From positions 1-34,386 of IMG/VR virus record IMGVR_UViG_3300022936_000194: a stretch of DNA of 34,386 bases; one strand, written 5' to 3'. Of the stretch, positions 2,913-34,089 are shown in pieces; within the stretch, counting starts at the first letter, position 1, and every line of letters begins with the position of its first letter. Position numbers and translations under genes: made by a program. The stretch is from a virus (taxonomy: Duplodnaviria; Caudoviricetes). The notes beneath the pieces are model-generated. The model did no database searches and was not told the origin of the DNA. It worked only from the letters and a program-made list of their open reading frames with translations.

Positions 2913-3377
2913 ATGGCTGTAGCACCCCTTATCTCGGTTTCTTTTCCTGTAAAGGCACATGTTCGTAAATACCTGCAAAGACAGTATGGGAGTGCCCATA
3001 TTGCTACAAAAACCACTATTCTGGGCATGCTTGTTTTGGGGAGCCTTGAGAAAACTTATGAAAAACCGGATAAGAAACTGCCTGCTTTTTTTTCTTACAG
3101 TGTTTTGGTACCGCAAGGCTATCTTAACAGGGTGGGTGCTACCCTGCCGCGTAACACGCAGCAGCACCTGGGCGAGCTGTGCACACACCTTTTTAACATG
3201 GCACTGTATGATCATCTGGATGCCGTGGCATGGGGTGGGGGGCAGGTGTACCCGGAACTGCGAAACTTTTTAGAGCGCTACGGTATTAATGAGGATGATA
3301 TGAAGGTAGAAAGTCTGTACAGAGCATACTCCAGGCACTGCAAAAAGAAGGAAATTTTCTATCCGGCGGTAAAATAA
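2913..3377 (+). CDS. Hypothetical protein, candidate DNA-binding late-gene regulator
   Basis: 154 aa. N-terminal strand-helix VSFPVKAHVRKYL and C-terminal helical, basic LRNFLERYGINEDDMKVESLYRAYSRHCKKK. First gene at the divergent late promoters. Confidence 0.6.
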   Translation: MAVAPLISVSFPVKAHVRKYLQRQYGSAHIATKTTILGMLVLGSLEKTYEKPDKKLPAFFSYSVLVPQGYLNRVGATLPRNTQQHLGELCTHLFNMALYDHLDAVAWGGGQVYPELRNFLERYGINEDDMKVESLYRAYSRHCKKKEIFYPAVK

Positions 3378-3442
3378 TGTTAAAATATCGGTTAACCCGC
3401 GTCATTAAAGGCGTAGCGGTGGGACACAATCGTAAAAATAAA
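3372..3442 (+). repeat. Copy 1 of a duplicated intergenic element flanking the 75-aa gene
   Basis: AAATAATGTTAAAAT ... GGACACAATCGTAAAAATAAA, matching 3669-3739. Confidence 0.75.
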
Positions 3443-3446
3443 ATTT

Positions 3447-3674
3447 ATGAAAATTGAAGGCTTTGAACATGTGGATTTACCGGACACAGGAAAAAGTAAC
3501 ACTGAGATTTTATTTTCTTTGGGTGTGCACCCTGAGCAAATAGGATCGGCCGTACCAAATTATCATGTGCCACATCATATTAAAGCCGCGGCATGGCTGG
3601 AAGTGGCCAATAGCATTGATGAGTTTAAAAGGCAGTTTTGGGAAAATCAATTTCAGATAAGCTACAGGAAATAA
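3447..3674 (+). CDS. 75-aa protein homologous to two permuted segments of the phage portal
   Basis: Residues 11-37 match portal 355-381 (12/27 identical, ungapped) and residues 43-73 match portal 244-274 (15/31 identical, ungapped). AT-rich initiation region. Confidence 0.8.
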   Translation: MKIEGFEHVDLPDTGKSNTEILFSLGVHPEQIGSAVPNYHVPHHIKAAAWLEVANSIDEFKRQFWENQFQISYRK

Positions 3675-3739
3675 TGTTAAAATCTTTGTCAAACCTTATT
3701 ATCATTGGCCGCGCGATCGGACACATTCGTAAAAATAAA
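3669..3739 (+). repeat. Copy 2 of the duplicated intergenic element
   Basis: AAATAATGTTAAAAT ... GGACACATTCGTAAAAATAAA. Confidence 0.75.
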
Positions 3740-3749
3740 TTATGCACTT

Positions 3750-4220
3750 ATGGTTTTTAATATAGAAGAGCAGCTGGGCGGTTTTGCATCGGTAGAGTTA
3801 TTCCTGATTTCTGAAACGGCCGACTGGCCACTGGTGGTAACTGATGCCAATGCCGGCAGTATTACACTTAACCCGGAGGTTAATGATGTAGACGGCACCA
3901 TTGAACCGGATAGCATAAACATAAGCGATGACCCTAAAACTGATGCAAGCGGACAGATTTGGCCAATAGATATACGTTACCGCTTCCTGGCACGCAACGC
4001 GGCCATGGAGCAGCTGCTGGAGCAGTATGCTAACAAGCCCTGCATTGTGCGTGGTTGTGGTAACGATGGCAACCGCAAGCAATGGGGAACTGACCAGGAA
4101 CCGCTGTACATGACCTACAAAAATATGTATGGTACCAAACGGCAGGATAGCCACGGTATTGACATTGCCATAAAAGGCGACCTGAGCAGCAGGCCGGTTT
4201 ACTTTATTGCAAATGAATAG
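3750..4220 (+). CDS. Putative virion protein, distant paralog of the tail-tube-like protein at 8281-8832
   Basis: Probable start ATG 3750 (MVFNIEEQLGG). Shared pattern EQLGG/EPVGG, CIVRGCGNDGNRKQWGT/YIVLAEEAGSGRLRQLGS and RPVYF/PAPIY. Confidence 0.65.
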   Translation: MVFNIEEQLGGFASVELFLISETADWPLVVTDANAGSITLNPEVNDVDGTIEPDSINISDDPKTDASGQIWPIDIRYRFLARNAAMEQLLEQYANKPCIVRGCGNDGNRKQWGTDQEPLYMTYKNMYGTKRQDSHGIDIAIKGDLSSRPVYFIANE

Positions 4221-29633: not shown

Positions 29634-31397
29634 TTATGCGGTGTATGTAATTCCTATTTTTTTTGCTCGTTCAATAAAAATATTGACCAGCTCCAGCATG
29701 TACTCTGCAGGCAGGTTTTTCCTAACGTAGTCTTCAAGCTGCGCAAGTGGCATATCTCCGGAGAAATGTTTTTTAACGGCAGCGTCAAGCTTGCGCCTGT
29801 CGCTATTACGTGCTTTCCGTTTTTGCTTATCAAGTTCAGCGCGGCGTTTTAACTGCGAGTCGGCATCAATTTTTTGCTGTAGCTTTTGGTAATGGTCATC
29901 CCAAAATTTGTACGTGGTTTCAAAGCGTACACCCTCCTTGTCATGGGTATTCAGGTAGAAAGATGGGTATTGCGGGGTACCTTTTGCAGGGTCCTTACGG
30001 CGGCGGGCTTCAAACCAATTGCGCGCCTTGTTTATGCGCCAGATGTATTCATCCAGATAGCTGAAAATAGTTGCCTTGGTGTAGGTAAGGCCACCAGGTG
30101 TTTTAAATTTATTTTTCATCCAGTTCTCATAAGCCCGCTGCCATTCTACCTGGTAGATATCGCGACGGCCTTGGTATAACTGGCTGGCAATAATTTTAAA
30201 TAACATCTGTACAAACAGCGCTTTAAACTGGTCAGCGCTCAGGCTTTCGCCCCGGATGCTTTCGCGGCGAAGTACTTCAAAATCAATCGGGCGATACTCA
30301 TCATACATGCCACTGGCCATGTTGGTGGCAAACTCGTAAGGCAGTTCAATTTCATTGCGAAGTACCTCACTATCTGAAACTTTAACATTTTCGGCCGCGG
30401 CCCCCGGTGAATCTGACCCGGATTTTGCCACATTGCGGAGCGGGGTGACCCCGTTGCTCTTGCCTATACTGCCTTTCTCAGCACTGCCCTCTGCCTGTGG
30501 CATGGCGTGATCTTGTGACTGAGCGGCAGGCTCGGCCTGCACCTTATCAACAGAAACCGTTTCATGCGGTTTCCTCTTTTCTACTCTTTTAAGTGATCTT
30601 GAAGAGACAAAATTATCCTGCAACTCTTTGCTATTTCCCAAGGTAAGGGCGTGATTTTCAAGCCCTGATTTTTTCGGGGCGTTGGCATCAAAAACAACCA
30701 GGATTTCAGGGCTTATGCGCACGTGTACGCCGCTTTTGCTGCCCCGGTATACATAATCTGTCAAAACGCCTTTACGTTCGAAAATCTGCCGCTGTGAGCG
30801 CACAGTAGCGGTGCAAACATCAACACTATATACATCTTCCTCCCTTTTCATTTTAGTAATGTTCCGGGCGTTCAGGTCGATGGGTGGCAACGGCTCTAAC
30901 ACCCGCATGGGATAGTTTTCGCGCAGGGTATTTCGCGCCTCCAGTTGTTTGGAGTACATGTAAAGCATGGCACTAAAGGTTTGCTCATAGGCATATACCA
31001 GGTACTGCTCGCGGTGCATTTTTATAATAGGGCCATACAGGTCGCACGCCTTTTGCGCCGCCTCATTATATTCCATTACGCCCAGGTCTTTATTAAGCGC
31101 GGCAAACTGTATGCTGTAGGTAATTTTTGCAGGATCATTCTCGGTGGCCATGTGCGCCTTTACCGTTTTATTGTGGGTAATTACCTCTTTATTGTACTTT
31201 TTAACCATAGCCCTGTCCTGGGCAGCAACACGCCTGTAGTTTGTCATAGAGGCGGCAAAATCAATACGGGGCTTAAAGCCTTTAAATTCCGGTTTCTTTT
31301 GCTGGTCTGTAACAGGCGCCGGCGTTTTGCCAATATGGGCTACCTGGTGGTATACCGATGGGTGGACGGGTAACTTGGAGGGGTTAAACTGATTCAT
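29634..31397 (-). CDS. Large early protein, possible replication initiator
   Basis: 587 aa with a wHTH-like CTATVRSQRQIFERKGVL segment, a disordered linker and a helical C-domain (YPSFYLN). Function inferred. Confidence 0.6.
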   Translation of the reverse strand: MNQFNPSKLPVHPSVYHQVAHIGKTPAPVTDQQKKPEFKGFKPRIDFAASMTNYRRVAAQDRAMVKKYNKEVITHNKTVKAHMATENDPAKITYSIQFAALNKDLGVMEYNEAAQKACDLYGPIIKMHREQYLVYAYEQTFSAMLYMYSKQLEARNTLRENYPMRVLEPLPPIDLNARNITKMKREEDVYSVDVCTATVRSQRQIFERKGVLTDYVYRGSKSGVHVRISPEILVVFDANAPKKSGLENHALTLGNSKELQDNFVSSRSLKRVEKRKPHETVSVDKVQAEPAAQSQDHAMPQAEGSAEKGSIGKSNGVTPLRNVAKSGSDSPGAAAENVKVSDSEVLRNEIELPYEFATNMASGMYDEYRPIDFEVLRRESIRGESLSADQFKALFVQMLFKIIASQLYQGRRDIYQVEWQRAYENWMKNKFKTPGGLTYTKATIFSYLDEYIWRINKARNWFEARRRKDPAKGTPQYPSFYLNTHDKEGVRFETTYKFWDDHYQKLQQKIDADSQLKRRAELDKQKRKARNSDRRKLDAAVKKHFSGDMPLAQLEDYVRKNLPAEYMLELVNIFIERAKKIGITYTA

Positions 31398-31678
31398 ACC
31401 GTTATGCGTTTAGCGTTGGCCACTACGTTTTGTGTAGTTACAAGCTGCGGGTTTGGCCCTATGCTTATAATCTCTGTCAGCTCATAGTAAACCGTAACAA
31501 TGTTGCTCCCGTTAAGGCTTGCAAGTTGAACTACATTGCCCATCTTGATACGGTCGCCCACCTTTACAATGGCATCCTGAGCAATGGAGAACCTTATTTG
31601 TGGGGTTCCTGTCCACTCAAGCTCCGGTTTAGGGGCATTCCTAAGCAGAATGTCGATTTCGTTAGTAAAAGTGATCAT
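31394..31678 (-). CDS. Hypothetical protein
   Basis: Probable start 31678 (MITFTNEI), ATGA coupling to the 587-aa gene. Confidence 0.65.
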   Translation of the reverse strand: MITFTNEIDILLRNAPKPELEWTGTPQIRFSIAQDAIVKVGDRIKMGNVVQLASLNGSNIVTVYYELTEIISIGPNPQLVTTQNVVANAKRITV

Positions 31679-31787
31679 AGTGGTGTGTGTTTTAAAACCC
31701 TTTTCACCTTTCCGAACGGGCAAGAAAAGTCCTGCCCGGTTCATCCAGGAATTTAGGCAGATTGCGTCTGCGGGGTATTTTGTTAGC

Positions 31788-31870
31788 CGGGGGTGCGGGA
31801 ATCGAACCCGCCACGAGCTGCGGCTGGAGGCGTTCCTCCTTGCAGCTGGTCAACACCATTGTTACCCCTA
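31788..31870 (-). ncRNA. tRNA-like element A (no normal anticodon arm)
   Basis: Acceptor TAGGGGT/ACCCCCG, D-like AACA-ATGG-TGTT, long arm AGCTGC..GGAGG-AACG-CCTCC..GCAGCT, T-arm GCGGG-TTCGATT-CCCGC. Confidence 0.65.
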
Positions 31871-31927
31871 AAGTTGCCCGGCGCTTCCCCGGGCTGCGAA
31901 AATCAAATCAAGATAAAAAAACAGTTG

Positions 31928-32005
31928 CACGCGGGGCCGGAGTCGAATCGGCAGGGCTTGCGCCAAGGTGTTGGAGACCTCCTGATCCGCCAGTAACGCC
32001 CGCGC
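31928..32005 (-). tRNA. Atypical or pseudo tRNA-Trp(CCA)-like element B
   Basis: Acceptor GCGCGGG/CCCGCGT, anticodon arm GAGGT-CTCCAAC-ACCTT, variable hairpin GGC-GCAA-GCC, T-arm GCCGA-TTCGACT-CCGGC (one mismatch), poor D-arm, no encoded CCA end. Confidence 0.55.
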
Positions 32006-32079
32006 AGGTTGCCGGTCTTTCTCGGCTTGTCATTTCAAAAAACTAATAAATACAGAATGGCCCCCTCTGTGTGGGATTA

Positions 32080-32328
32080 TTATGCATTAACTATATTGCG
32101 CCGGCCACCGGTAAGCTGGCCGCGCAGTCGAGCCTTTTCGGCTTCGCTTAATTCGTGTTTTGGAGCCTTGCGGCCCCCGCCCTCGGAGTCTCCCAATTCC
32201 ATTAGGGCGGTGGTTGCTTCACTTTTGAGATGAGTAGCGGTATTTAAAAGTTGAGTGGCAAGCTCTATGCAGCTGTCTGCAGTAGCCTCCAATCGTTTAT
32301 ATTTTGCTTTTTCTTTTGCTATATTCAT
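32080..32328 (-). CDS. Hypothetical coiled-coil protein between tRNA-like elements
   Basis: 82 aa with an AT-rich start region. Confidence 0.65.
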   Translation of the reverse strand: MNIAKEKAKYKRLEATADSCIELATQLLNTATHLKSEATTALMELGDSEGGGRKAPKHELSEAEKARLRGQLTGGRRNIVNA

Positions 32329-32374
32329 GATATAGATTTGAGATTTTAGTATTCAGTATTCAGTACTACCTCGT

Positions 32375-32432
32375 TGCAGGTGCGGGGATCGAACCCGCCA
32401 GAACTCGTTACCTGGCACCGCTGCCACCTGCT
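32375..32432 (-). ncRNA. Minimal 58-nt tRNA-like element C
   Basis: Acceptor GCAGGT/ACCTGC, D-like GGCA-GCGG-TGCC, short middle arm, T-arm GCGGG-TTCGATC-CCCGC. Confidence 0.65.
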
Positions 32433-32502
32433 CCCAACTATTAACCTAAAAAAACTGTCCGCTACTTTTCCGGACTGGCCAAACTAATATAAAAGCGAAT
32501 TT

Positions 32503-33248: not shown

Positions 33249-33845
33249 TTAAAATTGTATTACTTTATGTTTCATGGCCTTGCGTACAAATCCTGCCTTG
33301 CTGCCCACACCTGCCGCACTAAAAAGGTTTTGCTTATGGGTGTTAAGGGTACTTTGTGCCATATTAAGGCTTGCTGCAATGGCTTTATCGGGCTTATCGG
33401 TAGCCAGTTCCTGACTAATTTTAACCTGGTGCGGCGTGAGCTTGTGGCCGTTTAGCATAATACATTTGCTTTTCCATGCCAGGCAACGGCAATCGGCACT
33501 GCATCTAAAATTTTCAGATGGGCCGGCGGCGCCACTGGGTAAAAAGTCGGGGGTATTATCAGCATCGCCATACATACAGAATGCGAACTCCTCCAGAGCA
33601 GCATCATGATCCATATTGCGCAGGTCGTTCATGGCAATAGGGTCTTTAAGCATAAGCTCAAAAATCTCTGCTTTTTGCGCCGGGTTAATTTGGGCAAAGG
33701 GTATAGTGCGCCCGTTGCTCAGGGCAAATACCTTGCGGGTTTCGCGAATGCCAAACAGCTCTGTACGATGATCGCCGGGAATTAAGCCGGCAGGCAGTGT
33801 ATGCACTTGCGTTTCTTGTTTTTTAGTGTTACATTTGTCTTTCAT
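33249..33845 (-). CDS. Protein with a C-terminal LuxR-type HTH and a Cys cluster
   Basis: LTPHQVKI...DKAIAASLNMAQSTLNTHKQNLFSAAGVGSK, preceded by FRCSADCRC. Confidence 0.85.
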   Translation of the reverse strand: MKDKCNTKKQETQVHTLPAGLIPGDHRTELFGIRETRKVFALSNGRTIPFAQINPAQKAEIFELMLKDPIAMNDLRNMDHDAALEEFAFCMYGDADNTPDFLPSGAAGPSENFRCSADCRCLAWKSKCIMLNGHKLTPHQVKISQELATDKPDKAIAASLNMAQSTLNTHKQNLFSAAGVGSKAGFVRKAMKHKVIQF

Positions 33846-33879: not shown

Positions 33880-34008
33880 ACCTGATGTTTCGAGCATCAG
33901 GTTTTTTTGTGCCTAATAATTTTTTATATTTGCAGCTCTTCTGGTGTAATTTAATTGGTTTATTTTCTACCGAAGAGCTAACCTGGTGCGCAAGCGCCGG
34001 GTTTTTTT
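33880..34008 (+). promoter_or_regulatory. Structured region: terminator-like hairpin, -7 box, long hairpin, second terminator-like hairpin
   Basis: ACCTGATG-TTTCGAG-CATCAGGT plus T-run; TATATTTG 33925-33932; AGCTCTTC/GAAGAGCT; ACCTGGTGC-GCAA-GCGCCGGGT plus T-run. Confidence 0.55.
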
Positions 34009-34089
34009 ATTTTATAACAATTCTCGTAAATTCCTGTAATCCTTTATATTTCCTACTAATTATTTTTGCATTTATAAAACTACTCATAC

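Follow-up and report, generated by a model that had tools for sequence, protein, structure and literature searches.

The stretch of DNA analyzed, referred to as the window, is a single virus record of 34,386 nt (34.4 kb). A PHROGs scan of its 49 proteins revealed a terminase, a protease, a tape-measure protein, an endolysin, a holin and ParB, and relatives of the phage were found in Flavobacterium and other Flavobacteriales. The window is a Flavobacterium-type prophage. The same phage is present with a longer left flank in locus L027, where a YceI host-type gene is followed by an att-like copy of the 3' part of a tRNA-Met(CAT), a divergent repressor-like gene and the luxR-type gene. This gene order suggests that the minus-strand genes from position 33845 onward form the early operon, in which the features of Table 1 are located. 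A function of the 587-aa protein as replication initiator is weakly suggested. No sigma-70-type or Bacteroidota-type promoter was found immediately upstream of units A, B and C. Bacteroidota-type promoter boxes occur on the plus strand at 33830-33837, 33925-33932 and 34061-34068, directed away from the early operon, and one of the three falls inside the start of the luxR-type gene.

Table 1 Features of the putative early operon that surround and include the tRNA-shaped units
Feature	Position	Strand	Remarks
LuxR-type HTH gene	33249..33845	-	near operon head; family marker
Leader hairpin of cassette A	32457..32475	-	longer-loop variant of the GAAAGA hairpin; 24 nt before unit A
Unit A	32374..32432 (32432-32374)	-	minimal tRNA-shaped RNA; N73 at 32374, C74 at 32373
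82-aa ORF, no known family	32080..32328	-	between slot A and slot B/C; conserved flank to both swap sites
Leader hairpin of cassette B	32011..32026	-	GAAAGAC loop, degenerate compared to L001; 5 nt before unit B
Unit B, atypical tRNA-Trp(CCA)	31928..32005 (32005-31928)	-	G73 at 31928, C74 at 31927
Leader hairpin of cassette C	31876..31894	-	5 nt before unit C
Unit C	31787..31870 (31870-31787)	-	G73 at 31787, C74 at 31786
587-aa gene	29634..31397	-	downstream of units; family marker

An earlier note on this DNA had described three cloverleaf-like units on the minus strand at 31788..32432. They are indeed found there, on the sense strand of the early operon, with sizes of 59 nt (A, including the discriminator), 78 nt (B) and 84 nt (C). 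A scanner searching for a TTCRANNC T-arm, a 7-bp acceptor and a D hairpin returned only units A, B and C from the whole window, all on the minus strand. In dinucleotide shuffles of the unit interval (n = 500) no unit was found in 499 and one unit in 1. The scanner demands the T-loop and rewards the D-loop GG, so the presence of either among scanner units is not a finding. The earlier note had also suggested running ARAGORN and Rfam. Neither recognized the units in the window, ARAGORN making no call for A, B or C and Rfam giving no match at E ≤ 5, RF00005 included, but ARAGORN did call the orthologues of unit B in L001, L004 and L030 tRNA-Trp.

Unit A is a linker-free four-way junction, with an acceptor of 6 bp plus an A-A mismatch, a T-loop starting at 32393 and a short middle hairpin replacing the anticodon arm. 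In unit C the acceptor consists of 5 bp, one mismatch and then U-G, the T-loop starts at 31806, and a 40-nt bulged hairpin (31851-31812) replaces the anticodon arm. As had been noticed before, A and C have the T-stem in common, and in both the D hairpin has 4 bp and an nnGG loop and connects to the acceptor without a linker. The D-stem difference between A and C had been taken for a compensatory change; the orthologues of A itself carry an unrelated D arm, so that this difference is no evidence of covariation. The term elbow-preserving was too strong as well, since the D-loop GG of the window's A is absent in all three A orthologues, one of which, the L030 copy, has also lost the TTCRA motif of the T-loop and was hence missed by the scanner.

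Unit B is not a non-decoding mimic, whereas the earlier note had taken all three units for tRNA mimics. It has a short D arm, a 3-bp variable arm, a T-loop starting at 31947 and a 5-bp anticodon stem with a 7-nt loop (31976-31970) holding CCA, together with U33 and purine 37; A and C have no such arm. A codon-reading arm is thus present in B only. The CCA anticodon and G73 are identity elements of tRNA-Trp. Both are invariant in the four B sequences, and the host-type tRNA-Trp gene has both too. The four B sequences fold to a consensus cloverleaf, whereas the minimum of the window's own B is not a cloverleaf and its T-arm pair probability is 0. Pair 53-61 (31948) is A-C in the window and G-C in the three orthologues, indicating a damaged T-stem, and the B cassette differs from that of L001 at six places, T-stem and hairpin among them. 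Judged from these comparisons, unit B is a tRNA-Trp-type gene that is weakened in the window. Trp accounts for 1.0 % of the codons in 17 window ORFs. Global alignment of the units to the 40 tRNAs of a related Flavobacterium indicated no clear parent host tRNA. Folding of the single sequence also prefers an alternative for A, the cloverleaf not being the predicted minimum and the T-arm pair probabilities being 0.03-0.14; support for the cloverleaf of A and B therefore comes from comparisons. Shine-Dalgarno-like purine runs on the minus strand at 31842-31836 (C middle arm) and 31987-31977 (B anticodon stem) are held in paired stems and may be due to chance.

Each unit is preceded by a leader hairpin, and the two behave as one cassette, features that had been overlooked before, as had the tRNA-Trp nature of B. 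A cassette consists of a GC-rich hairpin with a GAAAGA loop, a spacer of about 5 nt (longer in A, Table 1) and the tRNA body. Near-identical phages exchange whole cassettes at identical boundaries. Swap edges at 31786/32028 were found in L002 and in contigs of two runs, and edges at 32360/32441 (slot A) in the contig of one run. In L002 and the two runs' contigs, everything from the B hairpin through the C discriminator is replaced by 91 other bases, which in L002 form another hairpin and tRNA-like unit. Units B and C are adjacent, no gene being located between them. Some further elements nearby were observed. The ORF at 31394-31744 on the minus strand, with a likely start near 31678, has diverged in L002 though its flanks are close, and resembles another swappable slot. 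Two more hairpins (31771-31714, minus strand) lie between unit C and the 116-aa gene and are well kept in L001, L002 and L030 regardless of the preceding cassette; they may be a terminator or leader. L030 holds an additional gene of ~245 codons (3108-3843) just upstream of slot A.

Related prophages were collected by the two flanking proteins, the 587-aa and the luxR-type protein. The 587-aa gene was present in 51 loci, of which 29 were distinct, and 20 of these had both genes in order. In the 34,223 nt of sense interval the scanner found 33 units, in 18 of the 20 distinct prophages. The antisense strand gave 1 unit, and none was found in 103,607 nt downstream on either strand, or in 684,460 nt of shuffles. 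Among the 33 units about four parses took the wrong 5' strand and the 49-nt unit of L091 is doubtful, while the L030 copy of A was not counted. A C at position 74, which the scanner does not require, was present in 29 of the 33 (background C 0.21, p 2e-16). The near-constant part of the units is formed by acceptor stem, T-arm and C74; the D-loop GG varies. A 7-nt anticodon loop was found in nine units only, five of them Trp(CCA) of two builds, and 24 have no usable anticodon arm. Trp(CCA) is also the commonest decoding type observed in the slots (L091, L078, L004, L030, L001 and the window). ARAGORN called 13 of the 33 units and missed the remainder. Standard tools thus miss most of these phage tRNA-like RNAs, and those of phage T5 have long been annotated as of unknown function. 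The middle regions are folded, range from a few nt to more than 130 nt, and their arms are not common across the family.

Ordinary tRNAs occupy the same slots as tRNA-shaped units in relatives. Locus L004 (3076-4100), from a cultured Flavobacterium, holds five units in 1 kb, four of them in a row with no gene between, and one of the five is a normal tRNA-Phe, another a body of 167 nt whose middle domain is large. In this family, two slots of a small prophage can house true tRNAs, minimal mimics or bodies that bear a cargo, and the cultured relative L004 is the best bench model. Neighbouring clades mostly lack units. An association with the 587-aa gene alone was considered and rejected: 27 Flavobacterium loci with this gene but without the luxR-type gene yielded 13 scanner matches, mostly host or att tRNAs, and one candidate unit. 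In 43 loci with the luxR-type but without the 587-aa gene, a redundant set with many short members, two units were found. Many Flavobacterium elements with the 587-aa gene and without the luxR-type gene (L249-L275) were seen, several of them 2-4 kb from a tRNA or att-like copy; these are possibly satellites or small integrative elements. No homologue was found among annotated phage records, and the literature searched, mostly open-access, yielded no description of hairpin-headed, swappable tRNA-body cassettes in such prophages.

Comparison of orthologues indicated that the stems are under constraint. The orthologue sets are small (4, 4 and 3 sequences) and related, and figures from shuffles are not probabilities. 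In B, four pairs have changed on both sides among four sequences, with at most one in slid controls. In A, seven have done so among four sequences, again with at most one in slid controls; one of the seven is in the leader hairpin of the cassette and one involves the poorly aligned D arm of the window. For C, all eight distinct natural changes, from L001 and a low-depth contig of run X7, keep all pairs, being in loops or junctions or giving G-U (p 0.002-0.01); one of these eight changes is in the middle stem. It could be argued that the slots merely gather tRNA genes by recombination, A and C being relics that are being lost. The six differences between the B cassettes of the window and L001, T-stem and hairpin included, the loss of the T-loop motif in the L030 copy of A, the two of 20 prophages lacking a unit and the scarcity of units in neighbouring clades are in line with such neutral decay. 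It is contradicted by the compensatory changes and by the C74 kept in anticodon-less units, by the eight pair-keeping changes in C, and by unit A in run X9, within which no change is listed while the adjacent gene's piece has 15 differing letters in ~300. The earlier note had regarded a lack of conservation and covariation among homologues as the mark of decaying pseudogenes; orthologues exist and they covary. The units, being family-wide and conserved with covarying stems, therefore do not appear to be simply decaying genes. Neutral decay is very improbable as a general explanation and already unlikely for the family, but it may plausibly apply to the window's own copy of B.

The features recognized by RNase P and in 3' maturation are a short leader, C74 and an acceptor that stacks on a T-arm (PMC11143913). 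All three units have the acceptor stacked on the T-arm, a short single-stranded leader and N73-C74, a combination that makes maturation likely. From the specificities of RNase P and the CCA enzyme it is predicted, with good confidence, that the units are matured by a 5' cut and CCA addition. The explanation that we prefer, at a probability of roughly 0.4, is that RNase P and CCA addition mature the units into stable RNAs serving as supplement or decoy against tRNA-targeting defence. Each unit would be a tRNA-bodied RNA gene behind a leader hairpin, in cassettes exchanged whole at fixed slots of the early operon. Host RNase P, 3' trimming and CCA addition would cut the units out. Released B would then be a tryptophan tRNA supplement, weakened here, and released A and C, unable to decode, would act as decoys for host enzymes with affinity for the acceptor stem and T-arm. 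The broken 53-61 pair and non-cloverleaf fold of the window's B, the non-minimum cloverleaf of A and the T-loop loss in L030 count against this explanation. Furthermore, the conserved features would be needed equally by a pure cutting signal, and do not single out an RNA product.

The main rival is indeed that the tRNA body is only a cleavage signal punctuating the transcript. RNase P would cut 5' of the body, so that the message upstream would acquire a protective hairpin at its end and the gene downstream would be set free, in the manner of mascRNA at MALAT1; the released RNA would be a by-product. The near-constancy of just the acceptor, T-arm and C74, the location of the units at gene boundaries, and the likeness of unit A to mascRNA in size and absent linkers (PMC11693755) are consistent with this. 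A survey of the leader hairpin in viral DNA bears on both explanations. In the viral collection searched, an estimated 3200 stretches contain the consensus hairpin, and 120 sites were sampled, one being the L001 contig. A tRNA or tRNA-like unit followed within 12 nt at 34 of the 120 sites (controls 0, 2 and 0.02), mostly with a spacer of 4-6 nt, and ARAGORN called a tRNA right behind the hairpin in 19 sampled loci. A scan for short spacing gave 50 stretches, 42 of them distinct; 25 of the 42 hold a unit, 22 of these of 49-66 nt, which agrees with a cutting signal. C74 was present in 32 of the 34 and 20 of the 25 units of these two further viral sets, as in the listed host-type tRNA genes. At the other 86 of the 120 sites no such unit follows, which shows that the hairpin is not specific to tRNAs. 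No Rfam family was assigned to it in 60 locus scans.

Several observations are difficult to reconcile with transcript punctuation. Tandem units lack an intervening gene, both B-C in the window and the four in L004, and structure is kept in the C middle arm, which RNase P does not need. Other cutting elements did not turn up in the same position either: no hammerhead was found by pattern in the family intervals or by Rfam in 17 loci, and Rfam recognized no ribozyme family in 20 hairpin loci without tRNA. A loose hammerhead core pattern matched 2 of the 120 hairpin sites. Punctuation is considered possible, though somewhat less likely than the preferred explanation. The variety of bodies in the same two slots, together with a cultured relative, makes the question whether the cut or the RNA product matters directly testable. 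A recurring element that has a T-arm but neither a 5'-3' acceptor nor an Rfam match stands behind the hairpin in six loci (L283, L292, L295, L297, L306 and L313), and in L105 and L173 a Proteo-phage-1 RNA (RF03044) is close to the hairpin.

Tandem units, true tRNAs in the same slots, the conserved fold of the C middle arm and rapid exchange together favour the RNA product, as does the tRNA or tRNA-like unit behind the hairpin at 34 of the 120 viral sites. Such a product could also be a regulatory RNA of the P1 C4 type, in which the tRNA body only stabilizes a middle arm and this arm binds one particular RNA or protein. The folded middle regions of a few to more than 130 nt, the middle hairpin of A that is kept in its orthologues while the D arm is replaced, and the kept pairs of the C middle arm would suit a scaffold of this type. 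It is opposed by the different loop of A in L030 and by the lack of common middle arms across the family. Within the rest of the phage sequence, the longest perfect complements are 8, 10 and 10 nt, no better than shuffles, and an antisense target in the phage was accordingly rejected. A scaffold function is judged improbable, though less so than decay. The three roles proposed in the earlier note, processing signal, sRNA scaffold with a cargo arm and decoy, are all live candidates still, and its interpretation is partly supported overall.

For the preferred matured RNAs, the counter-defence role is the part with least support; we infer it from early timing and cassette turnover, which suit counter-defence. 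Phage tRNAs are known to counter tRNA-cutting defences (PMC11555353, PMC10264068, PMC11464382). B and eight other units have an anticodon loop and could likewise supplement the host pool, whereas the 24 of 33 units without a usable anticodon arm could protect only by competition. Cas12a3 binds the acceptor stem, T-arm and CCA, and truncated tRNAs are still cut by it (PMC12851939). For retron-Eco7, rescue by a phage tRNA was reported to be abolished by a change of the anticodon or of the stem-loop; a translating tRNA and not a decoy was needed in this case, which counts against a decoy (PMC11555353). It may be speculated that temperate phages keep an exchangeable library of early-expressed, hairpin-headed, tRNA-shaped decoys sequestering defence toxins that bind tRNA, which would be a class of counter-defence made of RNA only; this is rather unlikely. 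If the RNA matters, the units would be a decoy-type counter-defence; if the cut matters, they would be a bacterial counterpart of mascRNA-type end formation.

P4 CI RNA is a phage RNA in an early operon, as are C4 of P1/P7 and the units here. C4 is an antisense RNA and a substrate of RNase P (PMC11143913). Rfam gave no C4 match and no complementary target was found in the phage operon, and an antisense RNA of the C4/CI type was rejected. YrlA, a bacterial Y RNA, has a tRNA-like module, and RNase P cleavage with CCA addition occurs in one member (PMC4201824). A Y RNA was rejected as well: there was no RF02553 match and no Ro60 (Rsr) among 49 proteins (PHROGs) or 19 (Pfam); unlike in YrlA, the RNA ends themselves form the acceptor in the units. 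The comparisons with P1 C4, P4 CI and YrlA made in the earlier note thus do not extend to membership of these families. ARAGORN and Rfam detected no tag reading frame with a tRNA-Ala-like domain, and tmRNA was rejected. In tRNA-dependent lysogeny, a short att core goes with a phage-borne tRNA whose type matches that of the host tRNA being disrupted (PMC10865867). The att-like copy in L027 repeats tRNA-Met(CAT) from anticodon arm to 3' end and no window unit is Met, so att tRNA replacement was also rejected.

The tRNA genes of Lak megaphages carry 'enigmatic introns' (10.1101/356790). These are Bacteroidota phage tRNA genes in which large inserts replace the normal anticodon arm, and the units of 100-170 nt in relatives of the window are similar to them. 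They differ in that the inserts are read as introns and, as far as the source describes them, in having no hairpin cassette. Furthermore, A is too short for such an intron and no split anticodon arm is visible in C.

The closest known systems are RNA1/RNA2 of phage T5 and mascRNA. In its record (NC_005859) the T5 RNAs are annotated as 'tRNA-like stable RNA with unknown functions'. Like the units, they have a tRNA body in which the acceptor, D and T arms are present while another folded region takes the place of the middle; they are located among true tRNA genes and small ORFs. T5 differs in being a lytic enterobacterial phage with a large tRNA region and no minimal 59-nt form, and the leader hairpin is absent from the 40 nt before its RNAs. 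A distant DNA search of 50,697 phage records gave no T5 match. The mascRNA and menRNA are ~58 nt, with a small D hairpin with GG, no linkers, a short middle arm and an intact T-arm, and are matured from a longer transcript by RNase P, RNase Z and CCA addition (PMC11693755). Unit A has this design (~58 nt, linker-free, D hairpin with GG, T-arm), the GG being absent in its three orthologues. In contrast to the units, mascRNA is vertebrate and, as far as the source describes it, from a single fixed locus with an upstream triple helix where a simple hairpin is found here. The likeness between mascRNA and unit A is one of design, with no sign of kinship.
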